Source: Candidatus Omnitrophota bacterium
GTDB taxonomy: Bacteria; Omnitrophota; Gorgyraeia; Zapsychrales; Zapsychraceae
Reading direction: 5' to 3'
DNA: 64,000 bases
Assembly: GCA_029261065.1 (NCBI GenBank)
Contig: JAJDCB010000023.1
Span: 39,682 to 103,681 of the forward strand
A model generated the notes under the pieces. That model had not been told where the DNA came from, made no database searches, and saw nothing but the letters and a program-made list of their open reading frames with translations. Positions within the stretch are counted from its first letter, which is position 1. Each line of letters begins with the position of its first letter. A program made the position numbers and the translations under genes. Below are positions 29,826 through 57,223 of the stretch, piece by piece.

Positions 29826-30188
29826 ATGAAATTTTCTAATTTAAAAATTATGTTGGTAGTAGGTCTTATAATGGGTTTTACGTCTGCTATTTCATATGCT
29901 CAAGAAGGGGCGGGGGATGCACAAAAACCTCAAGACCAAGCGGCTGAGGTTGTAAAGAATATTTGTCCATTAAGTGGAGAAGTTGTTGGAGAAAATTTAG
30001 TTGAATATAAATATAAGAAGAAAGCCTATAAGTTTTGTTGTAAAAAATGTCTTAAAGCTTTTAAGAAAAATAAAAAGAAATATACCCCTGAAATTGCCGA
30101 TTTGTTTGATGCATTAGAAACGAGTCAAGCAGAAGAAGTTGTAAATACAGTTACCTCAGAGGTAAAGACGTTTGAAGAAAAGAAATAA
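29826..30188 (+). CDS. secreted small protein with a YHS/TRASH-like Cys motif
   Basis: AGGAGG RBS; signal peptide; CPLSGEVV...YKYKKKAYKFCCKKC resembles YHS/TRASH metal-binding domains. Confidence 0.45.
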   Translation: MKFSNLKIMLVVGLIMGFTSAISYAQEGAGDAQKPQDQAAEVVKNICPLSGEVVGENLVEYKYKKKAYKFCCKKCLKAFKKNKKKYTPEIADLFDALETSQAEEVVNTVTSEVKTFEEKK

Positions 30189-30199: not shown

Positions 30200-30898
30200 A
30201 TGAGTAAGAAGTCATCTTTGAAGTTTATTAAACCTGCCATAATCGTTGTTGCCATTTTATCCGTTGCTGGAATATCCTTTCAAAAAATATCAAATTTCGC
30301 AAATGAAAATGCGATCCTCAAAGAAGTTATCAAACGACTAGAAGCCGACTCTCGTTTAGCGGAAGTATTAGTGACGGGAGTTAATTATGAAGAGAAAACA
30401 AACAAAAGTTTTACGACGATCAAGCTTCTTGAATATGATGTCTCAGGCGAGCCATTAGAACCAAAATACTTTACGTTTTCTGGTAACATCATTCAGTTTC
30501 AATCGTTAGTCATTCGATTCAATGATATTGATATTCGTCAGAAAAGTAAGCTAAAAGATAAGAGCGTCTATTTGTTTTGGAAAGTTTTTTTGCTTGATGG
30601 GGAAAATACCCAAGAGTATGAATTAACCAAAATTAATGAAATTCCACAAGGGTATAAAGTACCTGAAGAAGTTGACCCTTACGAGAAAGAGTTGTGGCAA
30701 AATTTTTGGACCTCTGCTTTAGATCCAAAAAGAGCTCAAGAGAGTGGTATTAAAAATGCTCAAATAGAAGCTCCTGGCACAATGTTTGTTCCAGGACATC
30801 TATACACTATTAATATTGAGCATGACGGTGGATTACGTATAGATTCATCTATTATTTCTCCTATTCTTCGAGGAGAAAAAATTCTTGATGACCTCTAA
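30200..30898 (+). CDS. hypothetical membrane-anchored protein
   Basis: 232 aa; N-terminal TM; no recognised domain. Confidence 0.4.
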   Translation: MSKKSSLKFIKPAIIVVAILSVAGISFQKISNFANENAILKEVIKRLEADSRLAEVLVTGVNYEEKTNKSFTTIKLLEYDVSGEPLEPKYFTFSGNIIQFQSLVIRFNDIDIRQKSKLKDKSVYLFWKVFLLDGENTQEYELTKINEIPQGYKVPEEVDPYEKELWQNFWTSALDPKRAQESGIKNAQIEAPGTMFVPGHLYTINIEHDGGLRIDSSIISPILRGEKILDDL

Positions 30899-30915: not shown

Positions 30916-31533
30916 ATGGTTATGTTGGGATTGAGGCTGATAGTATTATGTATAATAATCGGTTTAATGGGAGTAAGTGTATCGTATGCTAATTATGAGG
31001 TGTATTCGACAGAAAGTCATGAAAAGGAAGCCGAGGATTTAATTCAGCAATATGTGCAACAAATGGTCGTGCATTCTTTTACAAGGAAGGTAACAGAACT
31101 TATTCGTGATATTGTTGTTCATCAAAATATTCAAATGTTTCCAGCTATTGTTATACAAGCAGGGCAGCAAGCAGCTGTACAGTCTTTTTCACAAGAAGAT
31201 ATAAGAGAAATGGTTCGAGAAGTGTATCAAAAAAGTTTTGATTTGGCTTTAGAGCAACGCAGAAGAGGATTTAGCCAAACTCAAATGCAAAATAATATAC
31301 AAGAAAGCATTGATAAGAAATTAGAACCTATCTTGGAGGAGCCCCTTTTTAAATTTGTTGTTGAACAAGTTCTTTTGCAGGCCGATGCTATGCAAAAACA
31401 GATTGTTATTATGGAAACATTTAGGCAACAAGCCCAACTGGCGAATTTGCAACAACAGCAAGTCGCGCGTCAGCAGCAAGTACAATCACAAATTCTGCAA
31501 TCTTTACCGCGAAATGCTGCTAATTATAGATGA
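30916..31533 (+). CDS. hypothetical secreted protein with a Gln-rich C-terminus
   Basis: AAGGAG RBS; signal-like N-terminus; QQQQVARQQQVQSQ tail. Confidence 0.4.
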   Translation: MVMLGLRLIVLCIIIGLMGVSVSYANYEVYSTESHEKEAEDLIQQYVQQMVVHSFTRKVTELIRDIVVHQNIQMFPAIVIQAGQQAAVQSFSQEDIREMVREVYQKSFDLALEQRRRGFSQTQMQNNIQESIDKKLEPILEEPLFKFVVEQVLLQADAMQKQIVIMETFRQQAQLANLQQQQVARQQQVQSQILQSLPRNAANYR

Positions 31534-37598: not shown

Positions 37599-38411
37599 GT
37601 GAAGCAAAAGTGGACTGGGAAAATAGTGGGAGCATTATTAGGATTTCTTTTTACGAGAGGGTTGCTAGGAGTTGTCTTTGGTTTGATCATTGGGCATATT
37701 TTTGATGTGGGTAAAGATCGATCTATGAAAAAGGCTTGGGGTGGCATTTTAGGTTTTATGTTTGCCGGTCCTTTGGGTGCCATAGCGGGTGTTTATTTCG
37801 GACATGCCCTTGATACGATGAGTTCTGAGGTTAATCATCGTTCCGTTTTTCAAATTAATTTCATATCCATATTGTCATACATTATTAAAGTTGATGGACG
37901 AATTGAGAAAGAAGAAGTTAATACCGTTTTAAAGACATTTGCTCAACTGGGATATCAACGTGAAGAAATGGAGCGCTTAGGAAAGACATTAGTTTTTGCT
38001 CTTGGACAAGATATAGATTTGAAGCAAACATGTGAGGCTTTTAAAAAGGTTGCGAGTTACGAAGAGCGATTTATGCTCTTGAGAGTTGTGTATTTTGTTG
38101 TGATGGCTGATGGCGTTTTTCATGCTAAAGAGAAAGAAGCTATTAGGCAGATTGTTGAGTATTTGGAAATTCGTGATTATGATTTTAAAAGCTTACAAGC
38201 GGAGTTTGTCTGCGTAGATGATGATCATTATGCCTTATTAGGATTAAAAAGAGGGGCCACAAAGGTGGAAATAAAGAAGGCATATCGCAAATTAGCTCTT
38301 ACGCATCATCCGGATCGGGTGGGTCATTTGGGGGAGGAGTATGTCAAGATTGCTACGGAAAAATTCCAAAAAATAAATGAAGCCTACGATAAAGCCCTCA
38401 AGGAGCTATAA
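37599..38411 (+). CDS. djlA: DjlA-like co-chaperone (TM + TerB-like domain + C-terminal J domain)
   Basis: GTG start 7 nt after AAGGAG. Two N-terminal TM helices. C-terminal J domain [32 protein letters not shown] with the HPD motif. Confidence 0.7.
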
Positions 38412-38757: not shown

Positions 38758-38901
38758 TTAAGGGCTTTTGATAAGGAGCCTAACGTGTTAAACCAAATGA
38801 AATTTAATTGTCGGATGAGAATTAGAAAGGAAGAGAACTGTCTCTTCCTTTTTTTTATTTTGATAGAGAGATTGAAAATGTTGATAAACGGAGGATTTAA
38901 G

Positions 38902-40947
38902 ATGAAAAAATATGTTTCTGTATGGGCCATTATCATGTTTCTCGCAGTACCGAGTGTTGCAACTGCAATGGAGGAAGTAAAATTTATTCAAGCCGTTGAC
39001 CCGGGGTTTGTTCAACCCGTAGATACTGACGTTTCGCAAGCAGGAGATTTTTACGTGTTGGATCGCAAGGCCTCAAAAGTTTACGTGTTTGATAAGGAAG
39101 GAAAATTTCAATGGGGTTTTGGAGATCGTGGATTTGCTTTAGGTAAGATGTCTTTGCCTAATTCCCTGGCGATTTCGCTAAAGGGAAATGTTGTTATAGC
39201 AGACACAGGTAATTATCGGGCACAAGTATTTAATCGTAATGGACAAATTTTGTTTGAGTTGGGAAATAAAGGGACTTTGCCAGGTGAGTTTAAAAATGCA
39301 ACAAGTGTGGCTGTAGATCCTTTAGAAAATATCTATGTCGCAGATACGGAGTTAAACCGCATTTCTCAGTTTAGCCCTAAAGGAGTTTTCTTAAAGGTCA
39401 TGAATTTGGAATATAAGCCGATGGATTTAGCGTTTGATAAACAAGGAGCTATGTATGTGCTTTTGTCAGAGGCTGGTAAGATCGTCAAATATTCTATTGC
39501 AGGTGATGAGTTAAAGGAAATTACTTACTATCAAGACAAAGACAACGTGCTTGCCTCAACAGTGGGAATGACGGTGGATTCAAAGGGTGACATTTATCTT
39601 GTTGAACATAATAAACAAAGCATTAAGAAAATCGATCATAAGTCTCAGTTATTATTTTCTTTTGGTTCTCAGGGAGTAGGCAAAGGGCAATTTAACCATC
39701 CATTAGGAATATCAGCAGATGATTTAGGTAAAATTTATATCGCGGATTCTGCCAATAAAAGAGTACAGGTTTTAGAAATAAATGGAAGCACAAAACCAGA
39801 ATTGGCACAGGCCGTTTATTTGCGACCAGTTATTGATTATCAAAAAAGCCTTTCTGCTAATGATTCGATATCTGATGTCGATTATGTTCCCAACAAAGGG
39901 TTATATGCCTTATCGAATGAAAAAGGATATATTATTGTTAAAGGAGAACTTAATCAATTAATTGGTGACTCAAGTGATGAAAAGTTACATTTAAGCAATC
40001 CAAAAGCAATCCATGTGATGGATGATGGGCGTATGTTAGTAGCTGATACGGGTCATCATCGATTGAAGTTTCTTAAAACGGATGGTACTCATGATTATAC
40101 GTTTGGAAATAAAGGTGATCAAGATGGCGAATTTAATGCTCTTGAAGGTGTAGCCTCAGATTCAAAAGGGTATATCTATGTCGCTGATACAAACAATAAT
40201 CGTATCCAGATGTTTAATAGTGATGGCATTTATTTATCTTCTTTTGGTAGAAAGACGGAAGTATTAGATGATGCTAATCCAATGGGAGGAACTTTTCTGC
40301 ATCCAAAAGATTTGGCTTTTAATTCGAAAGATCATCTATACGTCTTAGATTATAAAAATAAGAGGATTCAAATCTTTGATGATCAGAAGATCTTTATTAA
40401 AGAAATAGGTGGGGCTCGCGATTTGGTAAAATTTTTAGAACCCATCGATATTGCGATTGATAACAACGATTATCTTTATGTAGCCGATCGTGGAGAACAC
40501 AATATTAAAGTGTTTGATCATGAAGGCCAATTAGTTCTTACCTTTGGATCCAATGGAAAAGGTCCAAGTCATTTTCCTGCGCTTTCAGCTATTGCTAGCT
40601 GGGAAGGGCAAATTTACGTTGCCAATAAAAATTTAGATGATATTGCTGTGTTCGCTTTTCAACCAAATAACACTATGAAAAAAGAACGCGTGTATATCAC
40701 AAAAATATCATTGCCATTACTCATGGATAACGCTACAGAAGAAATTAAACAGACAATGGCAAAGAAGTTGACGTTTGAAAATATCAGAAAAGAGTTATCA
40801 CAGAAACTAAATGTATCAGAGGACATATTAAATCAAGTTATTAAAGTAGAGGCTGAGGAATATTTAGGCGATGGAAGGTTAAAGTTGACTGTAAGTGCTC
40901 CTAAGGTTTTGCGAATGACTAAGACAGAAGTAGAGCCTATACAATAA
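38902..40947 (+). CDS. secreted NHL-repeat (six-bladed beta-propeller) protein
   Basis: ACGGAGGA RBS; signal peptide MKKYVSVWAIIMFLAVPSVATA. At least 8 NHL-type repeats (GxFxxPxGxAxDxxGxIYVADxxNxRIQxF, e.g. GEFNALEGVASDSKGYIYVADTNNNRIQMF). The 38785 start in the ORF track is an unsupported upstream extension. Confidence 0.75.
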   Translation: MKKYVSVWAIIMFLAVPSVATAMEEVKFIQAVDPGFVQPVDTDVSQAGDFYVLDRKASKVYVFDKEGKFQWGFGDRGFALGKMSLPNSLAISLKGNVVIADTGNYRAQVFNRNGQILFELGNKGTLPGEFKNATSVAVDPLENIYVADTELNRISQFSPKGVFLKVMNLEYKPMDLAFDKQGAMYVLLSEAGKIVKYSIAGDELKEITYYQDKDNVLASTVGMTVDSKGDIYLVEHNKQSIKKIDHKSQLLFSFGSQGVGKGQFNHPLGISADDLGKIYIADSANKRVQVLEINGSTKPELAQAVYLRPVIDYQKSLSANDSISDVDYVPNKGLYALSNEKGYIIVKGELNQLIGDSSDEKLHLSNPKAIHVMDDGRMLVADTGHHRLKFLKTDGTHDYTFGNKGDQDGEFNALEGVASDSKGYIYVADTNNNRIQMFNSDGIYLSSFGRKTEVLDDANPMGGTFLHPKDLAFNSKDHLYVLDYKNKRIQIFDDQKIFIKEIGGARDLVKFLEPIDIAIDNNDYLYVADRGEHNIKVFDHEGQLVLTFGSNGKGPSHFPALSAIASWEGQIYVANKNLDDIAVFAFQPNNTMKKERVYITKISLPLLMDNATEEIKQTMAKKLTFENIRKELSQKLNVSEDILNQVIKVEAEEYLGDGRLKLTVSAPKVLRMTKTEVEPIQ

Positions 40948-40979
40948 TAACTCAAAAGTTTATTATTGGAGCAAGAACT

Positions 40980-43900
40980 ATGAAGACATCGCAGTTAACT
41001 TTAATATTATTATTAGGTTTTGTGATGTCTTCTTTTTTGGGGTGTGATCAATTTCGTCCTCAGGAAAAGGGTCTGGTTATTGTTGATCCAAATTCAGAAG
41101 CAGTTGTTGTTGATGAGCAGGGAGATGAAATTGAAAGTGATTATGTTGATATTGTCGAAACGGTTAAGTCTTCAGAAACTGTTATCTTAAGAGATAACAA
41201 AATATTTACCAAAAATTCAAAGAAAAAATTTATTGAGAAAGATGCATCTCCCGCCATACCTGCAACAAAACAAGGTAACGTTAATAATTTAGAAGACGCT
41301 ATTAAAGAAGATCGTGTACCCACAACAAATTTTCAGTCTAAAGATACGCCTAAAGTTAAAAAAGTCGTTCATGAAAAAAGCATCGATCTCTGCAGTGATC
41401 AAGGATATATCTCCTCAGCCGAATGCCGCCTTTGTAGCGATATTCCAGGAGCTATTTGCAGTGAGACGATTAAATTATCTCATGGGGAGCAATGTTTTGA
41501 ATGTGCCACTCAACAAAAAACTTGCCGAGATTTAGGTTTTTTAAGTAAACGAGAATGTAAGAAATGTAATAAAAATGATGCGACAGAATGTGTATTTAAG
41601 GTAGAGGCGGACAACGGAAAATCTTGTTTTGAATGTGTGGATCGTGCCATCAAGTGTAAAGATTTAGGATTGATGAATTTGGATGAATGCACTTCGTGTG
41701 ACAAAGATCCTAAAATGGAATGCATTGCTGATCAGTTAACTGAGGAAGGGGTTAAGTGTTTTAATTGTGTCATTAAGCCTCAAAAATGTTCACAGCTTGG
41801 TCTCATTGATTTGCCTGGATGCCGTACGTGTCAGGAAGATCCCACAAAAGAATGTAAATCATCTAAGAAAACAAATTATGGGCAACAGTGTTATCAGTGT
41901 TTTGATAAAGAACAGAGTTGCGCGGAAATTAATCAATTAGATGTCTCAGAATGCTCAGGGTGTTTATCTCAGGCAGGTAAGGAATGTATAAAAACAGATA
42001 AAACCAAAGAAGGGTTGCAGTGTTATGGCTGTCAGGATCGTCATGAGTCTTGTGCGCATATAGGTTTGTTAAGCCAAGAGCAATGTGAGTCGTGTGACGC
42101 TAGTGAAAAGACACGCTGTGTTGCTGGACGTCAGACATTACAAGGTGAGTCTTGTTTTTCTTGTGTTAAAAAATCAAAAGATTGTCATGGGCTAGGTTAC
42201 CTTAGTCAAGAAGATTGCAGTATATGTGCTCAAAATCCACAAAAAGAGTGTCAGGCGGAGAGTCAAACAAAAGATGGCGAACAATGTTTCGTTTGTCAGG
42301 ATAAACCACAGCAATGTCAGGATTTGGGATTATTGGTGTCTAATCAATGTGAAGAATGTCAAAAGGATCCTACTAAAGAATGTGTGACCGCATTAAACAC
42401 GCAAGAAGGGCAACCATGTTTTGTTTGTCAGGATAAACCGCAACAGTGTCACGACATCGGTCAATTAGCGTTAGATATGTGTTCTGTTTGTTCGAAAGAT
42501 CCCAATAAGTTATGTTTACCAGGTGATAAAACCGAAGAGGGTGTCCAGTGTTATAACTGTGTCGATAGGCCGCAAGAGTGCAGTGATTTTAATCAACTAA
42601 AATTAGATGAATGTTTATTGTGCGAACAGGACGACAGTAAAAGATGTGTGGCGTATGACAAAACAGAAGAAGAGGTTCAGTGCTTTTTATGTGAGGATAA
42701 ACCGCAAGAGTGTAAAGATTTAGGGTTGTTAGCTCAAGATCAATGTGATTTATGTCAGCAAAATTCAAAGAAGGAATGTAGGGTTGATCAGGTTACAAAT
42801 AGCGGTGTGCAATGTTATTCATGCGCGGATAAACCACAGGAATGTCGGGATCTAGGATTGTTTAGTGAAGATGAATGTGGTTTGTGCGAAGAGAATCCAA
42901 AAAAACAATGTCAGATTGATAAACAAACGAAGGAAGGTGTGTCGTGTTTCATCTGTAAAGATAAGCCAAAGGATTGTTTAGACATTGGGTTATTAAATGA
43001 AGAGGGTTGTCAGATGTGTGAGGGGAATGAACGCAAGGACTGCCAAAAGGATGTTCTTACCGATGCCGGTGTGCAGTGTTATACATGTCAAGATAAGCCA
43101 CAAACTTGTGAAGACTTAGGCTTACTTAATCATGAAGGATGTGGGCGTTGTCAAGAAGATGAAAATACAGAATGTATTTTAGAGGCAAAAACAAATCAAG
43201 GGCAAGGTTGTTATTTGTGTGTAGAAAAATTGCAAGATTGTCAGCAGATTGATCAAATCGATTTATCAGAATGTGCGTCGTGTGAAAAAGATGTAAAAAA
43301 AGAATGCCAGATTGGTCAAAAGACAAAGCAAGGCAAACAATGTTATGAATGTGGAGAGAAGGCGCAAGAATGTCTGGATATAAATTTACTAAGTCTTGAT
43401 GAGTGTTTGGCCTGTGAGAAAGAAGATAATAAAATTTGTCAGCATAAAGATAAAACGAAGGAAGGGGTTCAATGTTATAGCTGTGAAGAGAAACCGCAAA
43501 CGTGTGTAGATTTAGGGTTAATAACGGAAGATGCCTGTGAAGTATGTAATCAGAATACAAGAACAGAATGTCAAGTAGATCAGATGACAAAAGAAGGAGT
43601 GTCTTGTTATTCTTGTCAGCAAAAACCTCAAGAGTGTCGAGATTTAGGGTTGTTTAGTTTGGATGAATGCGCCTCTTGTGAAGAAAATATGCGCAAACAG
43701 TGTCAAGAAGATCAGAAAACAGAAGGTGGGACACAATGTTACATTTGTCAGGACAAACCGCAAGCGTGTCATGACATAGGACTATTGGGAATAGATGAAT
43801 GTCAGCGCTGTGAAAGTCAATCTAATAAAATTTGTCAAGTGGATATCCTTACTGAGACCGGTACGCAATGCTTTACGTGTCAAGATAAGCCGCAAGAATG

Positions 43901-46900
43901 TGAAGACTTGGGGCTTCTTAAACAAGCACAATGTGAAACATGTCAGCGTGATGCGAATAAGGAATGCATGTTAACCGAGAAGACGAATCAAGGCGAGCAA
44001 TGTTTTGTGTGTGTTGAGAAGCCCCAAGATTGTTCACAGCTAAACCAGGTGAGTTTGGAAGAGTGTCAAACATGTAATGCCGATCCTGACAAAGAGTGTC
44101 GCGTAGGTAATAAAACGAAAGAGGGAACGCAATGTTATGAATGTGTAGATAAGCCGCAAGATTGTGCGCAGTTGGAATTGCTGAATTTAGAAGAGTGTTT
44201 TGTTTGCGAGGAAAATTCATCGAAAGAATGCGTATCAACTGTGAAAACAAAAGAAGGGATTCAGTGTTATGGTTGTCAGCAGAAAAAGGAAGAGTGTCGT
44301 GATATAGATTTATTATCAAAAGAGCAATGCGAATTTTGTGATCAGAATGCCAAGACAGAATGTCAGATGGATGCCCAAACAAAGGAGGGCAAGCAATGCT
44401 ATTCTTGTGTTCAAAAACCTCAAACGTGCCATGAGTTAGGGCTTTTTAGTCAGGATGATTGTTTAAGTTGTGAAAATAATAAACGCAAACAGTGTCAAGT
44501 TGATCAAAAGACAACGGATGGAACGCAATGTTTTATTTGTCAAGATAAGCCGCAAGAGTGTAATGATATTGGCTTATTAGATGAACCAGGATGTCAAGCC
44601 TGTGATGATAATCCAAACAAAGAATGTCAGGTAGATATTCAGACAGAAAATGGGGTGCAATGTTATACGTGTAAGGAAAAAGTTCAAGGGTGTGAACAAT
44701 TAGGATTTTTGAGCCAATCTCAATGCATGAGTTGTGAGGAAGATGGGCAGAATGAATGTGTTGGTAGTGATAAGACAGCGACTGGAGATCAATGTTATGT
44801 TTGTGTTGAAAAACCGCAATCGTGTGTGGAGCTTGATCAAGTTGGTTTGGAAGAATGTCAATCATGCGAAGCTGAAGATGGCAAAGAGTGCCATGTTGGT
44901 AACAAAACCAAAGAAGGACGACAATGTTATGTATGTGCTGATAAACCTCAAGAGTGTCACGACTTGGATTTAATTAATTTGGATGAATGTTTATCGTGTG
45001 AAGAAGATAGCAACATGAAATGTAACAGTAAAGGAAAAACGCAAGGTGGTATCCAGTGTTACGCCTGTGAAGAAAAGAAACAAGAGTGTCGTGATTTAGG
45101 ATTTTTAGCTTCAGATCAATGTGAGTTTTGTAATAAAAATGATAAAACGGAATGTCAAGAAAGTGAAAAAACAAAAAGTGGTGAGTTATGTTTCAGTTGT
45201 GTCATGAAACCTCAAACATGTCACGGTCTTGGGTTGTTTAGTTTAGATGATTGTCAAACATGCGAAAGTAATCCGCGTAAACAATGCCAGGCTGATCAAA
45301 TGACGGATGATGGATCCCAATGTTATATATGTCAAGATAAGCCGCAAAACTGTCGAGATATTGGACTGTTAGGCGAGGATGGATGTCAATTATGTGAGAA
45401 AAATAATAAGACATGTCAGGAAGATATATTAACGGAATCGGGCGTTCAGTGTTTTAGTTGTAAAGATAAACGAATGACGTGTGATGATTTGGGGCTACTT
45501 GGCCAATCTGATTGTAAAACGTGTGAGCATGATGCGAATAAGGAATGCATGCTATCCGAAAAAACGAACGATGGCGAACAATGTTTTGTCTGTGCCGAGA
45601 AGCCCCAAGATTGTTCTCAGTTAGATCAGATTAATTTGAGAGACTGTCAATCCTGTGAAAGCGACTCCTCGAAAGAATGTCGTGTTGGTAATAAGACGAA
45701 AGAAGGACGGCAGTGTTATGGATGTGTTGATAAACCACAAGAATGCGCGCAATTAGAACAGATAACGTTAGATGAATGTTTATCCTGCGAAGAAGATCCC
45801 AATAAAAAATGTATGACAAAAGATAAAACGCGTGAGGGCGTGCAATGCTACGCGTGTGAAGATAAGAAAAAAGAATGTCGAGATTTAGGCTTATTCTCCG
45901 AGGAACAATGTTCTTTCTGCCAACAGAATTCAAACACGGAATGTCAAGCTGTTGAAACAACACCTGATTCATTAACATGTTTCTCTTGTGTAGAAAAACC
46001 ACAAACGTGTCATGGTCTGGGTCTTTATAACCAAGAAAATTGTCAGAAGTGTGAAAGTAATCCACGTAAACAATGTCAGGCGGATCAAAAGACAAAAAGT
46101 GGAGAGCCGTGTTTTATTTGTCAGGATAAACCGCTTGAGTGTGAGGATATAGGTCTTCTAGATGAAGAGGGGTGTCGCGTTTGCCAAGATGGTTTGGGTA
46201 AGGTTTGTCAAAAAGATATTCTAACTGAGAATGGCGTGCAATGTTTTACTTGCGAAGAAAAACCGCAAGAGTGTCCGGATTTAGGTCTGTTAAGTTCAGA
46301 GGGATGTGCAGAGTGTCAAAACGATTTAACCAAGGATTGTTTACTAGCTCAGAAAACAAATCAAGGAGAAGAATGTTTCTTATGTGTGGATAAACCTCAA
46401 ACATGCCAAGGCATTGGTCAATTAAATTTAGACGAATGTCAAACGTGTGAATCAGATGGAACTAAAGAATGTTTGGCAGGAAATAAGACAAAAGAATCTC
46501 GTCAGTGTTACACATGTGAAGATAAAGCACAAACGTGTGAAAGTATAGATTTGATCAATTTAGATGAATGTCAAAATTGTGATGAACAGCCAAACATGGC
46601 CTGCAAAACGTCTCAGAGAACAAAGGAAGGGCGTCAATGTTATTCATGTGAAGAACGGGCTCCAGAGTGTCTAGACTTTGGGCTCTTATCACAAGAACAA
46701 TGTCAGCAATGTAATCAGAATCCATCCACGGAATGTCGAAAAGAAAAGAGTATGACATCAGGAGAAGGATGTTATGCCTGTGTGGATAAACCACAAGAAT
46801 GTCAGGACATTGGACTACTTAATCAAGAAGATTGTTCGCAATGTGAAAAAGATAAGCGAAAAGAATGTCGAGCTGATCAAACAACAAAAGAAGGCGTTCA

Positions 46901-47738
46901 ATGTTTTGTTTGTCAAAAGAAGCCAAAACAATGTGGAGATATTGGATTACTTGCGAAAGATCAATGTGTTCAGTGTGAAAAGAATGGAAGAAAGCAATGT
47001 CAGCAAGATTCGAAAACAAAATCAGGTGAGCAATGTTATGTGTGTGAAGATCGGCCTGAGGCGTGTGACGATTTAGGTTTGATTAATGACAAGCAATGTA
47101 AAACATGTGAAAGCAATCCAAAGGCCAAATGTGTGGCCACAGCTAAGACGAATAATTCTGATCAGTGCTTTAGATGTGTGATGCAAGAACAACAGTGTTC
47201 TGATATTGGACTCTCTGATTTATCAGAATGTTCAGCTTGTGAGAGTGATTCTAATAAACAATGTTTGGCTGCAAAAAAGACTGATAGTGGTATTCAATGT
47301 TATTCTTGTCAAGAGAAACCGAAGGGTTGTGCGAGTCTTTCACAACTAAGTTTGGCGGAATGTAATTCTTGTGAGACCGATGATAATAAGACATGTCAAC
47401 AAGCCAAGAAAACAGCCGATGGGGAGCAGTGTTATTCTTGTGAAGATAAACCACAACAACAACCAAGCCAGGCTTGCACAGATATTGGTCAGTCCAGTTT
47501 TGAACATTGTAAAGATTCATGTCCCGGGGAATGTTTGGAGGCTAGCTCCACAAAAAGTGCTGAACAATGTTACCGCTGTAAGGTTCCATTAGGAGCTCGA
47601 GAATGTCTGGATTATGAATATTTTCAAGATTGTAATTCTTGTACAGCAGATGAAAAATGTGCCAAGACAGGGTTGAGGTTGTTTGAAGGTAGTGGGCGTG
47701 GCGTTCCTTTAACCTGTTATACTTGCCGCCCGAAGTAA
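40980..47738 (+). CDS. giant cysteine-rich tandem-module lipoprotein (no recognised family)
   Basis: 2252 aa; TGGAG RBS; signal peptide with lipobox FLGC. About 45 tandem 44-aa modules with invariant spacing C-x2-C-x6-C-x10-C-x2-C-x7-C and core [DE]KPQxCxDLGLL. Very rich in K/E/D/Q; about 270 Cys in total. Confidence 0.8.
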   Translation: MKTSQLTLILLLGFVMSSFLGCDQFRPQEKGLVIVDPNSEAVVVDEQGDEIESDYVDIVETVKSSETVILRDNKIFTKNSKKKFIEKDASPAIPATKQGNVNNLEDAIKEDRVPTTNFQSKDTPKVKKVVHEKSIDLCSDQGYISSAECRLCSDIPGAICSETIKLSHGEQCFECATQQKTCRDLGFLSKRECKKCNKNDATECVFKVEADNGKSCFECVDRAIKCKDLGLMNLDECTSCDKDPKMECIADQLTEEGVKCFNCVIKPQKCSQLGLIDLPGCRTCQEDPTKECKSSKKTNYGQQCYQCFDKEQSCAEINQLDVSECSGCLSQAGKECIKTDKTKEGLQCYGCQDRHESCAHIGLLSQEQCESCDASEKTRCVAGRQTLQGESCFSCVKKSKDCHGLGYLSQEDCSICAQNPQKECQAESQTKDGEQCFVCQDKPQQCQDLGLLVSNQCEECQKDPTKECVTALNTQEGQPCFVCQDKPQQCHDIGQLALDMCSVCSKDPNKLCLPGDKTEEGVQCYNCVDRPQECSDFNQLKLDECLLCEQDDSKRCVAYDKTEEEVQCFLCEDKPQECKDLGLLAQDQCDLCQQNSKKECRVDQVTNSGVQCYSCADKPQECRDLGLFSEDECGLCEENPKKQCQIDKQTKEGVSCFICKDKPKDCLDIGLLNEEGCQMCEGNERKDCQKDVLTDAGVQCYTCQDKPQTCEDLGLLNHEGCGRCQEDENTECILEAKTNQGQGCYLCVEKLQDCQQIDQIDLSECASCEKDVKKECQIGQKTKQGKQCYECGEKAQECLDINLLSLDECLACEKEDNKICQHKDKTKEGVQCYSCEEKPQTCVDLGLITEDACEVCNQNTRTECQVDQMTKEGVSCYSCQQKPQECRDLGLFSLDECASCEENMRKQCQEDQKTEGGTQCYICQDKPQACHDIGLLGIDECQRCESQSNKICQVDILTETGTQCFTCQDKPQECEDLGLLKQAQCETCQRDANKECMLTEKTNQGEQCFVCVEKPQDCSQLNQVSLEECQTCNADPDKECRVGNKTKEGTQCYECVDKPQDCAQLELLNLEECFVCEENSSKECVSTVKTKEGIQCYGCQQKKEECRDIDLLSKEQCEFCDQNAKTECQMDAQTKEGKQCYSCVQKPQTCHELGLFSQDDCLSCENNKRKQCQVDQKTTDGTQCFICQDKPQECNDIGLLDEPGCQACDDNPNKECQVDIQTENGVQCYTCKEKVQGCEQLGFLSQSQCMSCEEDGQNECVGSDKTATGDQCYVCVEKPQSCVELDQVGLEECQSCEAEDGKECHVGNKTKEGRQCYVCADKPQECHDLDLINLDECLSCEEDSNMKCNSKGKTQGGIQCYACEEKKQECRDLGFLASDQCEFCNKNDKTECQESEKTKSGELCFSCVMKPQTCHGLGLFSLDDCQTCESNPRKQCQADQMTDDGSQCYICQDKPQNCRDIGLLGEDGCQLCEKNNKTCQEDILTESGVQCFSCKDKRMTCDDLGLLGQSDCKTCEHDANKECMLSEKTNDGEQCFVCAEKPQDCSQLDQINLRDCQSCESDSSKECRVGNKTKEGRQCYGCVDKPQECAQLEQITLDECLSCEEDPNKKCMTKDKTREGVQCYACEDKKKECRDLGLFSEEQCSFCQQNSNTECQAVETTPDSLTCFSCVEKPQTCHGLGLYNQENCQKCESNPRKQCQADQKTKSGEPCFICQDKPLECEDIGLLDEEGCRVCQDGLGKVCQKDILTENGVQCFTCEEKPQECPDLGLLSSEGCAECQNDLTKDCLLAQKTNQGEECFLCVDKPQTCQGIGQLNLDECQTCESDGTKECLAGNKTKESRQCYTCEDKAQTCESIDLINLDECQNCDEQPNMACKTSQRTKEGRQCYSCEERAPECLDFGLLSQEQCQQCNQNPSTECRKEKSMTSGEGCYACVDKPQECQDIGLLNQEDCSQCEKDKRKECRADQTTKEGVQCFVCQKKPKQCGDIGLLAKDQCVQCEKNGRKQCQQDSKTKSGEQCYVCEDRPEACDDLGLINDKQCKTCESNPKAKCVATAKTNNSDQCFRCVMQEQQCSDIGLSDLSECSACESDSNKQCLAAKKTDSGIQCYSCQEKPKGCASLSQLSLAECNSCETDDNKTCQQAKKTADGEQCYSCEDKPQQQPSQACTDIGQSSFEHCKDSCPGECLEASSTKSAEQCYRCKVPLGARECLDYEYFQDCNSCTADEKCAKTGLRLFEGSGRGVPLTCYTCRPK
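41470..47490 (+). repeat. Intragenic tandem repeat: 132-bp unit (one 129-bp copy) with a higher-order super-repeat of 6 units (792 bp)
   Basis: Protein periodicity read directly. Antisense stop-free artefact ORFs at 43126 and 43918 are exactly 792 bp apart. Comparable modules 12 units apart (e.g. 43930-44040 vs 45510-45620) look about 80-85% identical by eye. Confidence 0.75.
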
Positions 47739-48143
47739 AATAGACTGACCTAGACAAACCCAGACAGTATGATTTCAAATTAAAAAAATTTTAAAATAAT
47801 TAAAGCTTCTATCTTAAATCAGATTAGATGTTTATGTAAAAAATATGATTTTTCCGTCTGGGATCGCTGGTTTTTGCCATAAAAATGTTTTATATTTATT
47901 AAAGATTCACATGATGTGAATGTAGTTCTGAATGCGTAATAAATATGGAGGACAACATGGCTGAATGGAAAGAAGACAAACCAATAAAAACATCAAACGA
48001 AGAGCGAGATATTTTTAGTTGGGATGAACCAAATATTCTTTTGTAATCAACGGTATGTACCCCAGAGCAACTACGGGGTATTAAACCAAGATGGAATTTC
48101 GTTAAAGCTTCGAAATTCCTTGAATACCAACTTCATTATATAA

Positions 48144-48181
48144 ATCCTATTCCTTAATTATTAAGGAATAGGATTTTTTTT
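48144..48181 (+). terminator. rho-independent terminator
   Basis: CCTATTCCTT-AATTATT-AAGGAATAGG followed by T8. The stem sequence is similar to that of the 38722 terminator. Confidence 0.55.
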
Positions 48182-48204: not shown

Positions 48205-48504
48205 ATGAAAGATTCGAATAATAATGAAGCGGGAACGTCAACGCGTTATCAAAAACATTTAAAAAAGAAACTCGAACTTTGGGAAGCTAAGTGCACACGT
48301 TGCGGGGTTTGTTGTGGGATTGTTGAGGGTGATCCTTGTGAGCATTTGGTGGAAGTGGGAAAGGGCGTTTATGGGTGTTCTATCTATGAGAATAGATTTG
48401 GAGAACATAAGACGGTGAGTGGTAAGGTCTTTCGATGTGTGCCGATACGAGATATTTTGCACAAATCCTGGCCAGGTGATCAATGTTGTGGGTATAAGAA
48501 ATAG
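48205..48504 (+). CDS. YkgJ/UPF0153-family CxxCxxCC Fe-S/zinc-chelating domain protein
   Basis: 99 aa; CTRCGVCC motif plus a downstream C...C...CC. Confidence 0.55.
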   Translation: MKDSNNNEAGTSTRYQKHLKKKLELWEAKCTRCGVCCGIVEGDPCEHLVEVGKGVYGCSIYENRFGEHKTVSGKVFRCVPIRDILHKSWPGDQCCGYKK

Positions 48505-49578: not shown

Positions 49579-50541
49579 TTGAAACCACCTTTTCAAATTA
49601 CAAAAGAAATCCATAATCTCTGTTTAGAGATATCTCGTTTAATAGTCCAATATGAAGGTTTAAGCCTACCAGCTCCTCAACTTGAGTTGAGAAAGCATGC
49701 AAAAATTCTTACGATTCAATCTAGTCTTGCTATTGAGGGCAACACGTTAACGATAAATCAGGTAACGGACATTATTAATAATAAAAAAATTGTTGGCCCT
49801 AAGAAGGATATATTAGAGGTTAAGAATGCTATAAAAGTTTATGATATTCTCAATAAATATGATTCCCAAGATTTAGATTCCCTTCTTGGGGCGCATAAAA
49901 TTCTCATGAGTGGTTTAATCAAAGATGCAGGGAAGCTGAGAAAGAATAATGTGGGTGTTAGAGCGGGGGATACTATTGTTCATATGGCTCCACCTTATAA
50001 GGTTGTCCCTGAGCTAATGAAGAAGCTTTTTCAATTTCTAAAAGTGGAGAAGGATTTAGATCCTCTTATTCGATCAAGTATTTTTCATTATGAATTTGAA
50101 TTTATTCATCCCTTTATGGATGGAAATGGTAGAATCGGTCGCTTGTGGCAATCTGTTATTCTTTATGATCATTCTAAAATTTTTGAGTATATCCCTATAG
50201 AGACCATTATTAAGCGTCGGCAAATGGAATATTATGAAGCCTTGCAAGCATCCACTAAAGAAGGGGCTTCGACGTTGTTTATTAAATTTATGCTTGAGGC
50301 GATTAAAGAAGCAACCGTTCAATTTACAAAAGATATTAAACCAGTACATCAAACAGCTGAAATGAGATTGAAGATGGCTCATGCTCATTTTGGGAATAGA
50401 TTGTTTAATCGAAAAGAATATTTAGCATTACATCATAATATTTCTCCTACAAGTGCAACACGAGATTTGTCTTTTGCAGCTGAGAGAAATATTCTCAAAA
50501 GGGTAGGAAAATTAAGTACAACCAAATACCATTTTTTATAA
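49579..50541 (+). CDS. Fic/DOC family protein (probable AMPylator)
   Basis: Fic motif HPFMDGNGRIGR; TTG start after GTGAGGA. Confidence 0.85.
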   Translation: MKPPFQITKEIHNLCLEISRLIVQYEGLSLPAPQLELRKHAKILTIQSSLAIEGNTLTINQVTDIINNKKIVGPKKDILEVKNAIKVYDILNKYDSQDLDSLLGAHKILMSGLIKDAGKLRKNNVGVRAGDTIVHMAPPYKVVPELMKKLFQFLKVEKDLDPLIRSSIFHYEFEFIHPFMDGNGRIGRLWQSVILYDHSKIFEYIPIETIIKRRQMEYYEALQASTKEGASTLFIKFMLEAIKEATVQFTKDIKPVHQTAEMRLKMAHAHFGNRLFNRKEYLALHHNISPTSATRDLSFAAERNILKRVGKLSTTKYHFL

Positions 50542-50615: not shown

Positions 50616-53600
50616 ATGAGCACTTCACCAAATACTCAATTCCAATTTCCTGAAGTTCGTGTTGTGGAGGCATCCGCAGGCTCGGGCAAGACCTATGCGT
50701 TGTCCAAGCAATACATCCAGCTTTTATTAAATCCTAAACTATTGTTTGATCATGTTCCGATGCGTAATATCTTGGCGCTTACCTTTACCAACAAAGCCGC
50801 TTTTGAAATGAAAAGGCGTATTATTCAATTTTTAAAGATTATTGCTTTTAAACAGTTAACCAAAGATCAAGAAGAGGATGTTTTAGGATCCATTGGTATT
50901 AATCGTGAAGAGGCTAGTAAAAAAGCCTTTACGATTATGGAGGCGTTGATTAATAATTATAATTTCTTTCAAGTTCAAACCATTGATAAATTTATCAACG
51001 CGCTTCTTTCGGGTTGTGCTTTTAAAATTGGACTCACCGCTAATTTTCGCATCAAAACAAACTCCAAAGACTATTTAGAGTACAGTCTTGATCAACTCAT
51101 TGATCAAGCCTTGCGGGATAAAGACACGCTTAAACTTCTTCAAGAATTTCTGCACCATTATTTATATCTAGAAAATCGTCTTGGTTGGTTTCCTAAGAAG
51201 GATATGTTAGAGATTGTTAAAGCCTTGTTTATGCAAAATAACACGTATGGTCTGATGTTTGAAGAGACGGAATATTCGTCTCAAGATATTATTAAGAAGA
51301 AGAGATTGATTTTAGATGAGATGAGAAACTTAAAGAGTATCATGCCAGAAGGTGCGGATCTAAGGTTTGTGAAAGCTTTTGATAAATTTTTATTGGATCG
51401 TGAAAAGGGTTTTGATATTGATAGTATTTCGGATTATTTTAAAAGAGAAGTCTTTCCAGCTAAGAAGAATGTTGAGGTGTCACGCGCTGTTGAAAAATCT
51501 TGGGATAAGATTCACAAGAGTTTAAAACAGTTATGCGAAGAAGAAGCCTTTTCTTTGTTTAATCCTTATATTCAGATTTATGATCAGGTTAAAGGGATTT
51601 TTTTAGAACGTGCAGCCCGTGATGATGTTTTATTCTTAGAGGAATTAAATAAACGAGCGGGAGCTTTGTTTGATGATGATTATGTGACCGTTGAAGAGCT
51701 GTATTATCGATTGGCCACACGATTTCATCATTATTTGATTGATGAGTTTCAAGATACGAGTGCCCTTCAGTGGCATAATTTAGAGAAGATGGCAGAAGAG
51801 GCTTTATCCACGGGTGGTTCGTTATTTTATGTAGGAGATCGCAAGCAAGCGATTTATGGATTCCGAGGAGGAAATGTCGCGTTATTTGATCAGATAAAGA
51901 TGAGATTTAAAAGTTTTAATGTTCAAATTGCTCAGCTGACGAATAATTGGCGCAGTCAGAAAAGTGTTGTCGAATTTAATAATGCTGTTTTTGGGATGGA
52001 AAACTTAAAACATTTTATTGAACAAAAACAGGCGCGTGAGATAAGTAAGAAGAAAAAAAATCCTGTGGTCTTTTACGATGATGATTTTCTAGAGCTTCAA
52101 AATATCTTTGGGAGTTCTCAGCAATCCCATCAGCCAAAGAATGATAAAGGTTTTGTTTATATCCAAAAAATTGAGGCTGCAAAAAAGGAAGATCGCGACG
52201 AAATTATAAGAGAACATGTGCTTGAGCTTGTTGATGCTTTGCGTAAGCGGTTTTCTTTTTCGGATATTGCTTTTTTAACACGAAGTAATTATGAGGTCGA
52301 GCAGCTTACCAATTGGTTGCTTGAAGAGAAAATTCCAGTCGAGTCAGAGCGAACATCAAATATTAAAGAAAATGTTCTTATCGCTGAGATCGTCTCTTTC
52401 TTAAAGTTTCTTCACTCTCCTATTGATAATATCGCGTTTGCGGATTTTATTTTGGGCGACATTTTCACAAAGGCAACGGGCCTTTCTAAGACAACGATTC
52501 AAGAGTTTGTCTTTTTGTTAAGAGCGCGAACATCAAAGGAACGTGATTTTTATATTTATACAGAATTTCGAAAACAGTTCCCTGAGGTTTGGGATAAGTA
52601 TATTGAAAGTTCTTTTGCGAATGTTGGTCTGTATCCTCTGTATGAATTGGCGATTAGTTTTTATAGTCTCTATGACTGCCTAAATCTTTTTCCTGAGTTT
52701 CAAGGGTACTTAATGCATTTTTTAGAAATCATTAAGAATCAAGAGGAAGAGCATTCTGATATTGAATCTTTTTTAGAATATTATGATGAGCTTATTGGGG
52801 AGGCGTTGTATGTGCATGTGACAGACACCGATGCCATCAAAATTCTTACAGTGCATAAATCTAAAGGGCTTGAGTTCCCCGTCGTCATTATTCCCTTTCT
52901 AGGGATGGATGTTCAAGTCGGTGTTTCTCAAGAACAACAAATGTCTTATATCCTTCAAGAACATGAAAATTCTTTACAGTTATTGAGACTTAAGGGTAAG
53001 TATTTAGGGTTCTCAGAGAAGTTGTATGAGATTTATGCGAAAGAATATAAAAAGGCATTTATATCCGAGTTAAATAATATTTATGTCGCCATGACGCGTG
53101 CCCAACATGAATTGTATGCCTTTATCCCCGAAAAAATTGGTCAGAGTTTTAATTTGGCCCAACTGTTGATTCCAGAAGATGTTTATCAATGTGGTCAACC
53201 TCACATTTATGAAAAGTCCAAAGCTAAGTCAATGGCGGTTAAGAGATTAAGCGCCTCTTCTTATCAAGATTGGATTCATTTTTTGAACGATGAATTTTTA
53301 GATGAGGATCAGATCCATAATAGGCAAAAGAAGCTTGGGGGTGAAGTTGTTCATAGTATGTTGTCTTTTATTGGGAATCTTGCTCACGAAGATAAAGAAT
53401 TGGCCCTGGAACAAGCCTATAGTCATGCTCAAATGAATTTTCCTTTTGTCGATCATTTGGACGCTTATCTAAAAAAAGTGAAACAACTTCTTAACAATAA
53501 ACGTTTTGAGTCCATCTTTTCTGATAAAGATGCGCAAGTGTTTACGGAAAAAGAAATTGTTAACGCGTTTGGGCATAGTAAAAGGATTGATCGGCTGATT

Positions 53601-53810
53601 GTTAAGACAAGTGAGGTTTGGATTGTTGATTATAAATCGTCGCAAGATGAGGGCGGTGATTATGAAAAACAAGTGGGAGAATATATGGCTTTGGTTGATA
53701 AGTTGTATCCTCAGCATGAGATCAAAGGATTTATTGTTTACTTAGATGATTTACATATGCAAGAAGTGAAATCAATCAGCACTGTCATTACTGAGACATC
53801 AGGAATCTAA
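50616..53810 (+). CDS. AddA-like UvrD-family helicase with C-terminal PD-(D/E)xK nuclease
   Basis: 1064 aa. Walker A ASAGSGKTYAL; motif II LIDEFQDTS; motif III YVGDRKQAIYGFRGG; motif IV NWRSQ. C-terminal nuclease IVDYKSS...E.YM. The last 9 codons plus the stop lie in a repeat-family unit. Confidence 0.8.
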   Translation: MSTSPNTQFQFPEVRVVEASAGSGKTYALSKQYIQLLLNPKLLFDHVPMRNILALTFTNKAAFEMKRRIIQFLKIIAFKQLTKDQEEDVLGSIGINREEASKKAFTIMEALINNYNFFQVQTIDKFINALLSGCAFKIGLTANFRIKTNSKDYLEYSLDQLIDQALRDKDTLKLLQEFLHHYLYLENRLGWFPKKDMLEIVKALFMQNNTYGLMFEETEYSSQDIIKKKRLILDEMRNLKSIMPEGADLRFVKAFDKFLLDREKGFDIDSISDYFKREVFPAKKNVEVSRAVEKSWDKIHKSLKQLCEEEAFSLFNPYIQIYDQVKGIFLERAARDDVLFLEELNKRAGALFDDDYVTVEELYYRLATRFHHYLIDEFQDTSALQWHNLEKMAEEALSTGGSLFYVGDRKQAIYGFRGGNVALFDQIKMRFKSFNVQIAQLTNNWRSQKSVVEFNNAVFGMENLKHFIEQKQAREISKKKKNPVVFYDDDFLELQNIFGSSQQSHQPKNDKGFVYIQKIEAAKKEDRDEIIREHVLELVDALRKRFSFSDIAFLTRSNYEVEQLTNWLLEEKIPVESERTSNIKENVLIAEIVSFLKFLHSPIDNIAFADFILGDIFTKATGLSKTTIQEFVFLLRARTSKERDFYIYTEFRKQFPEVWDKYIESSFANVGLYPLYELAISFYSLYDCLNLFPEFQGYLMHFLEIIKNQEEEHSDIESFLEYYDELIGEALYVHVTDTDAIKILTVHKSKGLEFPVVIIPFLGMDVQVGVSQEQQMSYILQEHENSLQLLRLKGKYLGFSEKLYEIYAKEYKKAFISELNNIYVAMTRAQHELYAFIPEKIGQSFNLAQLLIPEDVYQCGQPHIYEKSKAKSMAVKRLSASSYQDWIHFLNDEFLDEDQIHNRQKKLGGEVVHSMLSFIGNLAHEDKELALEQAYSHAQMNFPFVDHLDAYLKKVKQLLNNKRFESIFSDKDAQVFTEKEIVNAFGHSKRIDRLIVKTSEVWIVDYKSSQDEGGDYEKQVGEYMALVDKLYPQHEIKGFIVYLDDLHMQEVKSISTVITETSGI

Positions 53811-53903
53811 TGGATTCCCGATGTCTCGGGAATGACAGGCTCCGGTTTGTCATTCCCGCGAAGGCGGGAATCTAATGGTTTTCCCCCGTCATGGGGGAAT
53901 GAT
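53791..53903. repeat. Three GC-rich palindromic repeat units (CTGTCATTACTGAGACATCAGGAATCTAATGG; GGATTCCCGATGTCTCGGGAATGACA; TGTCATTCCCGCGAAGGCGGGAATCTAATGG; TTCCCCCGTCATGGGGGAA)
   Basis: Read directly; the first unit supplies the C-terminal codons TVITETSGI and the stop of the AddA-like ORF. Confidence 0.75.
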
Positions 53904-53928
53904 AGATATAAAAATTAAATGGTGATAA

Positions 53929-56782: not shown

Positions 56783-57223
56783 ATGAACAGTAATCATCCA
56801 AAAAAGGGATTTAGCCTCACAGAGCTTGTTGTCGTTATGGTTCTTGTTGGGGTTATTGCAGCCATGGCTATTCCAACTTATACAACAATGGTGCAAAAAA
56901 GAAGAGAGCAAGCCGTAAGACTGAAGTTACAGACGATACATGCGGCTAATTTGATTTATAAAGCAAAAAATGATGTTTATTATAATGACAATAGTACTAA
57001 TATTGCAGACGTGAATACGGCGCTTCAAACGAATGTTAATATAGAAAGTTATGAACAACTTGGTTATCAAGTTAATGATCCTGCTTACATTATCGTAATT
57101 TTTATTGCCACCGATGGTAACGGGGTAGGTGTGAGATTACTTGATGCTGTTATGGATGATAATAACCCTTGTTGTATTGTTGGGACAGGTTGGGACTCTT
57201 GTATATCTATGCCAGATTGTTAA
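56783..57223 (+). CDS. type IV pilin (prepilin with class III signal peptide)
   Basis: MNSNHPKKG|FSLTELVVVMVLVGVIAAMAIP: leader, Gly-1, Phe+1, Glu+5 and a hydrophobic helix. The C-terminal Cys-Cys...Cys...Cys region is consistent with a D-region disulfide loop. Confidence 0.75.
   Translation: MNSNHPKKGFSLTELVVVMVLVGVIAAMAIPTYTTMVQKRREQAVRLKLQTIHAANLIYKAKNDVYYNDNSTNIADVNTALQTNVNIESYEQLGYQVNDPAYIIVIFIATDGNGVGVRLLDAVMDDNNPCCIVGTGWDSCISMPDC

Follow-up and report, generated by a model that had tools for sequence, protein, structure and literature searches.

The window analysed here is a stretch of 64,000 nucleotides from contig JAJDCB010000023.1 of a Candidatus Omnitrophota bacterium. Our subject is a gene in this window that encodes a large cysteine-rich repeat protein, together with the gene for a secreted NHL-repeat beta-propeller lying directly upstream of it (Table 1). 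The two genes are separated by 32 nt, measured from the stop codon of the NHL gene to the start of the repeat gene, and a terminator-like hairpin is found on either side of the pair, the upstream one being the likely 5' limit of a two-gene unit. As counted from its sequence, the repeat protein contains 289 cysteines and no tryptophan in 2252 residues. The cysteines are distributed as 288 in 48 closed six-Cys units and one in the lipobox. The mature protein is very acidic, with an isoelectric point of 4.56 and a net charge of about -162.

Table 1. Features of the window that carry the description of the two-gene locus, with their coordinates in the window.
Feature	Coordinates	Strand	Remarks
Membrane-anchored DsbA-like thiol:disulfide oxidoreductase, CHEC active site	21640..22317	+	Thioredoxin_4 4e-19, DSBA 7.3e-12
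Terminator-like hairpin, upstream of NHL gene	38824..38853	+	13-pair stem, then T run; consensus match only
Secreted NHL-repeat beta-propeller, 681 aa from MKKYVSVW	38902..40947	+	Pfam NHL 5.9e-53
Ribosome-binding site GGAG	40968..40971	+	8 nt before ATG; read from sequence
Six-Cys repeat lipoprotein (predicted), coding sequence	40980..47738	+	2252 aa; stop codon included; frame open throughout
Signal peptide with lipobox, MKTSQLTLILLLGFVMSSFLG followed by C	40980..41045	+	Cys22 is the predicted lipidated residue; Asp at +2
Cys-free charged linker, ~115 aa (aa 23-137)	41046..41390	+	Between anchor and module 1; Pfam: none
Module 1, N-terminal cap type (aa 138-175)	41391..41504	+	Signature CRLCSDIPGAIC
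Modules 2-46 (aa 182-2154)	41523..47441	+	38-aa six-Cys units, 6-aa x[DE]KPQx linkers
Modules 10-39, five tandem blocks of six (792-nt super-repeat)	42579..46517	+	Identity peaks at lags 6, 12, 18
Cap module T1 (aa 2166-2200)	47475..47579	+	Shortened, C-x10-C-x3-C-x3-C-x11-C-x2-C
Cap module T2 (aa 2209-2249)	47604..47726	+	C-x8-C-x2-C-x5-C-x18-C-x2-C, long hydrophobic hairpin
Terminator-like hairpin, 3' of repeat gene	48142..48176	+	16-pair stem, then T run; consensus match only

A preliminary description of the protein had read its array in the rigid spacing C-x2-C-x6-C-x10-C-x2-C-x7-C, with a [DE]KPQxCxDLGLL core. Both were recovered: this spacing occurs 44 times with an exact period of 44 amino acids (aa), and a single further unit, at aa 1448, has x6 in place of x7. 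The natural register of the array was observed to be C-x10-C-x2-C-x7-C-x11-C-x2-C, followed by a 6-aa linker, x[DE]KPQx. In this register the first cysteine after the N-terminal linker opens a unit, and the protein ends 3 residues past the last unit. Searched for as a codon pattern, it gave 45 matches between 41391 and 47441, all on the + strand and in frame, where the expectation was 0.00 in 100 dinucleotide-preserving shuffles. These 45 matches, the x6 variant and two variant C-terminal units make up the 48 six-Cys units. The array is almost uninterrupted, as had been claimed, and the counts given for it (about 45 modules and about 270 cysteines) were too low. A Kazal-like register, considered on a comparison of spacings, would leave unpaired cysteines at both protein ends, and it was dropped because the natural register closes exactly at both.

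The module consensus is DKPQxCxDLGLLxxxxCxxCExxxxKECxxxxKTxxGxQCYxCx, in which the six cysteines are invariant and T34 and G37 are near-invariant. Hydrophobic residues are conserved at positions L/I9, L11, L/I12 and Y/F41, which contradicts the earlier view that the modules have no hydrophobic core. Module 31 is shorter by one residue. A higher-order repeat was also observed in the array, with a module identity of 0.53 at lag 6 against a background of about 0.41, and the best matches of individual modules lie at ±6, ±12, ±18 and ±24. Three antisense open reading frames (ORFs) of 154 aa each (43126..43590, 43918..44382 and 45631..46095, - strand; spaced 792 and 1713 nt) are opposite-strand shadows of this six-module super-repeat and not genes.

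Bacterial lipoprotein signals, the substrates of Lgt and LspA (PROSITE PS51257-type), have a basic n-region, a hydrophobic h-region and a lipobox cysteine at about residue 15-35; the classic residue at position -3 is Leu, and the PROSITE rule permits Phe. Scored against the pattern [LVI][ASTVI][GAS]-C, the window protein (…SSFLGC, Cys22) has Gly at -1, Leu at -2 and Phe at -3 and was accepted as carrying a lipobox, as had been proposed. In ten orthologues a cysteine stands at the corresponding place where the signal peptide ends, and in seven of these position -1 is G, A or S (ASGC, LAGC, VSGC, FSGC, LIGC and others). Several orthologues, belonging to other subfamilies, have plain signal peptides in which the lipobox is absent. 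The +2 residue among the orthologues is D, G or E, Asp being found in the window protein and two orthologues. Of the earlier label of surface lipoprotein, export and lipidation at Cys22 hold as predictions from the sequence, whereas the surface location was not borne out, in view of the Asp at +2 and the missing lipobox in several orthologues.

The two ends of the array differ from its central part and are shared with the relatives described below. All members of the family carry the signature CxLCxE[IV]PxAxC in their first one or two modules, as in module 1 of the window protein and in L004p, L005p, L010p, P0012 and P0013 (L and P numbers denote loci and proteins, respectively). At the C-terminus, the shortened penultimate unit T1 is present in every complete orthologue, and T2, with its variant spacing of x18 or x19, terminates all the family members examined, among them P0012 and P0013, which have four modules. 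The T1+T2 cap is displayed by the window protein and 11 relatives. The hydrophobic stretch of T2 was considered as a PEP-CTERM or LPXTG-type sorting signal and rejected, because it is only 5-6 residues long and is enclosed in a hairpin bounded by cysteines. The C-terminus of the repeat protein showed no signal for sorting or for translocation across the outer membrane.

Misassembly is frequent in repeat-rich genes, and we considered that the gene might be such an artefact, or a non-coding repeat that is open by chance. The orthologous locus L002 is disrupted by frameshifts, and L003, a short-read assembly of the same organism, begins about 950 bp downstream of the gene and leaves it uncovered. 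However, Tandem Repeats Finder reported no DNA tandem repeats for the gene, and nucleotide identity between any two modules is at most 75%. Divergence between modules was saturated at synonymous sites (pS ~0.77) while that at nonsynonymous sites (pN) was 0.31-0.40; the module copies are therefore old and under purifying selection, and for this reason an assembly artefact is excluded. The open frame of 6.7 kb holds 48 in-register units, a ribosome-binding site precedes its ATG, and intact orthologues were found in at least 10 independent assemblies. The 2252-aa ORF of the preliminary description is intact, and its origin as an artefact can be regarded as effectively refuted.

When 1.84 billion representative proteins were searched exhaustively with the module profile, only 44 matched at E <= 0.001, 16 of them at E <= 1e-10, and the named ones are hypothetical proteins from metagenome-assembled genomes (MAGs) of Candidatus Omnitrophota. 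The window protein, L004p, L005p and L010p are absent from the protein collections, their neighbours being present, with genes called on the contigs. Since long orthologues are missing from the collection, the figure of 44 proteins is a minimum; these long orthologues score 546-2291 bits with the module profile, whether or not --nobias is set. A codon-pattern scan of one genome per species (185,579 species) gave 107 loci. The 24 loci with at least three matches all came from 16 MAGs; 13 of these carry the label Candidatus Omnitrophota or Omnitrophica and 3 that of 'uncultured Planctomycetales'. The remaining 83 loci were single chance matches in unrelated taxa. At least 18 additional array-bearing contigs were found in a scan of metagenomes, and viral contigs contained no arrays, only single chance matches. 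The array family is so far restricted to Omnitrophota-type MAGs. The preliminary description had missed these relatives, the conserved end caps and the recurrent NHL neighbour.

The members of the family vary widely in length. The complete orthologues range from 655 to 2059 aa, with 14 to 45 units each, and the window protein is the longest seen; the unit counts across the family are 4, 14, 16, 17, 20, 26, 27, 36, 45 and 48. If the signal peptide is set aside, the cysteines of the window protein, and those of 10 of 11 complete orthologues, add up to a multiple of six. The window protein has all the traits of the family: a signal peptide with lipobox, a Cys-free linker, a first module with the N-terminal signature, the T1/T2 cap, and 45 central units with T34, G37 and x[DE]KP[QE]x linkers. 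In P0012 and P0013, two N-terminal modules are followed by an acidic Cys-free spacer and then by T1+T2 only. Because an acidic spacer here takes the place of the central array between the same caps, we regard that array as a replaceable spacer of variable length. The central modules are near-identical in L002 and L004, which points to recent homogenisation, and diverged in the window, L005 and L010. In L002 (7279..12544 on a 215-kb ENA contig) frameshifts within near-identical 132-nt repeats break the Cys-array gene into five or more ORFs. The breaks are probably errors of assembly or consensus, given that L004, a close relative, has an intact ORF of 2059 aa.

True copies of the module were also found at the N-terminus of S8 subtilases (P0002, P0007 from L001 10001..17317, P0014, P0016 and P0025; profile E 4e-41 to 3.5e-7). 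These secreted proteins are 1300-2400 aa long and have a heterogeneous set of six-Cys modules ahead of a C-terminal S8 domain, and P0005 and P0010, labelled as Omnitrophota MAG proteins, are partial relatives of the same kind. In the subtilases the modules alternate with other Cys-module types and are joined to a peptidase, whereas the window protein has no catalytic domain. A further group of large proteins (P0018, P0020-P0022) carries a 'TCTEIGWNAYETCSRCDYTTY' repeat and matches the first half of the module profile only (C-x10-C-x2-C; E 5e-9 to 1e-7); this likeness is probably convergent or very distant.

The repeat protein had been described as having no recognisable family, and this was confirmed by family, profile and fold searches. 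Pfam and NCBIfam returned no family for the whole 2252-aa protein (NCBIfam at E up to 1), and Pfam searches with one module, with three modules, with the N- and C-terminal regions and with two relatives gave sub-threshold noise only. EGF-like, laminin-EGF, furin-like and TNFR domains were rejected, since Pfam, given the whole protein, a single module or three modules, reported none even at E up to 10 and the spacing differs; the characteristic spacing of EGF includes C-x-C. The Myxococcus cysteine-rich repeat TIGR02232 was likewise rejected, NCBIfam giving 0 families at E up to 1. The statement that the module is neither EGF-like nor furin-like nor of the Myxococcus type is upheld by these negative profiles and by its spacing. 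Metallothioneins have clusters of cysteines as CxC or CC and no fixed fold in the absence of metal; the family PF07846 was rejected with a score of 14.4 bits against a cut-off of 27 and with a confident module fold modelled free of metal. The module profile, compared with all PDB sequences, gave only a weak match to the RING of MDM2 over 30-35 residues (E 0.002-0.05 in a PDB-sized search). RING fingers have eight Cys/His ligands in a cross-braced arrangement. We rejected an MDM2-like RING finger, as the match is driven by cysteines, lacks the second site and falls below the family standard.

Structural modelling of the module with AlphaFold2 gave a predicted local distance difference test (pLDDT) score of 91.5 for one module (45-row alignment) and 92.1 for three modules (14-row paralogue alignment). 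For three modules the predicted template-modelling score (pTM) was 0.55, and the geometry between modules therefore appears to be loosely fixed. In the model a short helix starts from C1, a helix carries C2xxC3, and a beta-hairpin has C4 on its first strand and C5xxC6 on its second. A Foldseek search against the PDB returned no fold relative, the best E value being 1.7, although small domains seldom score high in such searches; zinc-finger folds were not retrieved in the PDB fold searches. On these sequence comparisons the module is best filed as a new domain family, and the model suggests that it is probably also a new small fold.

The state of the cysteines was approached through the model and through rare variants of the module. 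The first CxxC is modelled in an alpha-helix, and CxxxC variants of this pair are tolerated. The second is modelled within a beta-strand, so that the side chains at i and i+3 would face opposite sides. Rare four-Cys variants have lost C2 or C3 together with C4 and have kept C1, C5 and C6; there are two such events, one in a module shared by P0007, P0014 and partial P0010, the other in P0016. A joint loss of two cysteines fits a disulfide that ties the helix to the first strand of the hairpin (C2 or C3 with C4). It was earlier suggested that the two CxxC pairs resemble zinc-ribbon or rubredoxin knuckles, with the two extra cysteines forming a disulfide. A zinc-ribbon or rubredoxin domain would have its paired CxxC at beta-turns as four ligands of one metal, and we rejected it, since the pairs lie in a helix and a strand and zinc-finger folds were not retrieved. 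The joint loss of C2 or C3 with C4 agrees neither with such knuckles nor with the two left-over cysteines being bonded to each other. Predicted export of the protein and the grouping of its cysteines in closed sets of six point, indirectly, in the same direction. We consider that disulfide-stabilised modules are clearly ahead of metal sites. The window also encodes a DsbA-like oxidoreductase with both domains above the Pfam cut-offs, whose gene is unlinked to the repeat gene and 19 kb away; judged from its sequence, it is a candidate oxidant or isomerase for the exported cysteines. A response-regulator gene (21282..21647) lies directly upstream of it.

The NHL protein has a Sec-type signal peptide, no cysteine and a C-terminal extension of about 90 aa. 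Its orthologues, with 47-52% identity, lie directly 5' of Cys-array genes in L002, L004, L005/L006, L010, L034 and L062, and a 53%-identical NHL fragment occupies the same position in L158. The NHL-Cys array pair was observed in 8 loci including the window, in at least three divergent subfamilies, with the two genes either overlapping or separated by 32-54 nt. Apart from the NHL gene, nothing was conserved across the neighbourhoods of the paired loci. Because 8 loci have the pair, about 12 arrays do not, and some NHL genes are unpartnered, the linkage is recurrent and not obligatory. It is probably functional, and we treat it as frequent in the family but do not use it to define the family. 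As a mark of the partnership the C-terminal extension was rejected, since unpartnered copies of the NHL protein have it too. In L008 (12406..16356) and L009 (294..4367), NHL homologues adjoin another unannotated family of about 1300 aa, whose members share an N-terminal …LWVNL(T/S)PYEK(E/D)R(I/V)IP… and a C-terminal 'GGIDL(N/S)PD'; the NHL protein may thus have more than one type of partner among large exported proteins. Genes which we take, by eye from their sequences, to be TtcA, DUF3313-like and DUF924-like are conserved 5' of one lipoprotein subfamily, and were dropped, as they resemble ordinary synteny of close relatives.

Several other genes of the window were also noted. A DjlA-type co-chaperone (TerB + DnaJ; 37599..38411, +) is encoded just upstream of the NHL gene, in L010 another is found some 8 kb 3' of the NHL/Cys pair (20175..21059), and components of the phosphotransferase system (PTS) are found near both, a shared context which suggests that the window organism and that of L010 are related. 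Just after the downstream hairpin there is an ORF of 99 aa (48205..48504, +) with a CTRCGVCC motif and nine cysteines, which has no Pfam or NCBIfam match at E <= 0.001. YHS and TRASH are metal-binding domains; a small protein with sub-threshold matches to both (29826..30188, +) is followed by two unannotated ORFs (30200..30898 and 30916..31533). Farther downstream of the repeat gene are a Fic-domain protein (49579..50541), an AddA/AddB-type helicase-nuclease pair (50616..56724, +) and a protein with a prepilin-type N-methylation motif (56783..57223, +) that is followed by a PMT_2 glycosyltransferase.

Taken together, these observations lead us to propose that the repeat protein is a disulfide-stapled, length-variable acidic stalk or tether in the envelope of an Omnitrophota-type bacterium, probably acting with the NHL propeller. 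We give this reading roughly even odds (a probability of about 0.5). The preliminary description had listed a disulfide-stapled fibre or adhesin among its options, and that option is the one we favour. The protein would be exported by the Sec system and then lipidated at Cys22, giving a layout of anchor, disordered linker of about 115 aa and a chain of 48 autonomous mini-domains with six cysteines apiece and 6-residue linkers between them. Each mini-domain, made of a short helix, a longer helix and a beta-hairpin, would fold independently by oxidation and be locked by three internal disulfides, one of them joining C2 or C3 to C4. The central array may then act as a protease-resistant spacer, resembling beads on a string in a flexible and strongly anionic chain, which either keeps the conserved C-terminal cap far from the membrane anchor or belongs to a layer of the envelope. 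The NHL propeller, presumably co-expressed, is a candidate binding partner or head, and stalk and propeller could together serve contact between cells, contact of cells with surfaces, or the architecture of the envelope. In this proposal we infer the biological function of the stalk (tether or adhesion), its surface location, the partnership with the NHL protein, the lipidation, and the disulfide state and topology.

A number of points weigh against this proposal. The lipobox is not conserved across the family, and under the E. coli rule the Asp at +2 of the window protein would imply retention at the inner membrane. For about 12 arrays the upstream sequence that could be inspected contains no NHL gene, and in L007, L008 and L009 there are NHL homologues that carry the C-terminal extension and yet lack a Cys partner. 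The disulfide state and topology draw on modelled secondary-structure strings and on two correlated cysteine-loss events, and many Omnitrophota are anaerobic; in a reducing habitat, extracytoplasmic disulfides are a less safe assumption and metal-thiolate sites gain in plausibility. Should C1 be bonded to C6, the ends of a module would adjoin and the chain may perhaps not be a straight rod.

The most direct alternative is that four cysteines per module hold Zn, Fe or another thiophilic metal, so that the array would buffer, store or detoxify metal (a 'sponge') or be a structure held together by it. Each module does have two CxxC pairs, and the weak profile match aligns CxxC-x19-CxxC with the RING of MDM2 (E 0.002, PDB search), in a region which we take to be zinc site 1 of that domain; there is in addition a marginal metallothionein match (E 0.058). 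The strong acidity of the protein and the anoxic habitats of many relatives would also suit this reading, and the C1, C3, C5 and C6 that are kept in reduced variants could in principle make one site. All of these profile matches, however, are below family thresholds, and the CxxC pairs are modelled in a helix and a strand and do not form knuckles. AlphaFold gives a confident module fold free of metal, the CxxC of the helix is interchangeable with CxxxC, and a copy number of 4 to 48 with replacement by an acidic linker fits a spacer better than a store tuned for capacity. We therefore regard a metal-binding array as unlikely. The most far-reaching form of this idea, thiolate-metal sites along an envelope fibre of about 290 cysteines that serves as a metal store, a scavenger or a redox-active (possibly electron-conducting) filament, with a fold unseen in solved structures, would be a long shot.

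The cysteines could also be engaged between molecules, knitting a rigid envelope coat by intermolecular disulfides as has been proposed for the cysteine-rich proteins of chlamydiae. That Omnitrophota belongs to the Planctomycetes-Verrucomicrobia-Chlamydiae (PVC) group, that the protein combines a lipoprotein anchor with an extreme cysteine content, and that a DsbA-like oxidoreductase is encoded would all suit such a matrix. It is nevertheless an improbable one, as the cysteine counts are exact multiples of six, the modules are closed at both protein ends and their fold is confidently intramodular; because every cysteine but that of the lipobox sits in a module, none is left for bonds between molecules. 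A last alternative keeps the stalk-like array and moves it off the cell surface, as an inner-membrane-anchored periplasmic spacer that sets or fills the spacing of the envelope. It would agree with the Asp after the lipobox cysteine in the window protein and two orthologues, and with the lack of a C-terminal translocation or sorting signal among those we looked for. But the +2 residue varies, some orthologues have no lipobox, and 48 modules would be very long for a periplasm. The +2 sorting rule was established in E. coli and is not known to hold in Omnitrophota; exposed stalks, adhesins and surface proteins typically show variation in copy number and homogenised arrays. A periplasmic spacer is, on balance, doubtful.

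The family described here defines an unannotated domain of about 38 residues, with six cysteines in a helix-helix-hairpin arrangement and no relative in Pfam, NCBIfam or the PDB. It is so far limited to Omnitrophota, whose uncultured cells of about 0.2 µm are suspected to be host-dependent. Its members form a natural series, with 4 to 48 modules and the same caps at the ends; together with the recurrent NHL partner, this makes it a testable candidate for an envelope or attachment apparatus, and a compact, repeatable, disulfide-stabilised module could serve as a scaffold in protein engineering. It also indicates that whole families of cysteine-rich extracellular modules from candidate phyla have yet to enter the curated libraries.

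Omnitrophota have been described as cells about 0.2 µm in size, and large adhesin-like proteins on their surface were proposed to mediate attachment to other cells (PMC10066038). The giant surface proteins of this phylum (PMC10066038; bioRxiv 10.1101/2023.11.21.568195; bioRxiv 10.64898/2026.06.07.730766) resemble the window protein in being large, exported and repetitive, with a proposed role in attachment, but are encoded by genes of more than 20 kb and built of beta-helix, TSP3, lectin, NHL or dockerin modules, whereas the window protein is smaller and made of another, unannotated module. Cysteine-rich repeats are unmentioned in these three sources, and the literature searched held no mention of a six-Cys repeat of the window type. 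Among other members of the PVC group, the chlamydial lipoprotein OmcA and OmcB are also Cys-rich and partly lipidated, and their oxidation state shapes the envelope; they differ in having no tandem six-Cys arrays and in acting through intermolecular cross-links, while the cysteines of the window protein are all in closed modules, its lipobox apart. Homology between the window protein and the chlamydial Cys-rich envelope proteins was not detected.

The closest functional parallels are found outside this group. In the TraA-type stalk of Myxococcus, tandem small Cys-rich repeats are thought to hold the functional end off the membrane (PMC3325183), and both are envelope arrays of Cys-rich repeats in variable copy number. 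The window protein has no sequence relation to TraA, no PA14 head and no MYXO-CTERM, its cysteine spacing and phylum are different, and both of its ends are variant Cys modules. The EGF-like, TNFR cysteine-rich, furin-like and laminin arrays of eukaryotes are made of six-Cys modules of about 40 residues, probably with three disulfides each, that form long rods or tethers, and the window module is similar to these. Fibrillin-like proteins, too, use arrays of disulfide-rich modules as extracellular rods or tethers. The window protein falls outside every family with which it was compared (TraA-type, EGF-like/TNFR, zinc ribbon, RING finger and metallothionein), and is best filed under a known kind of architecture, that of disulfide-rich tandem extracellular modules. 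By analogy, it would function like the known stalks of Cys-rich modules, such as the repeat region of TraA and the EGF-like and TNFR arrays.

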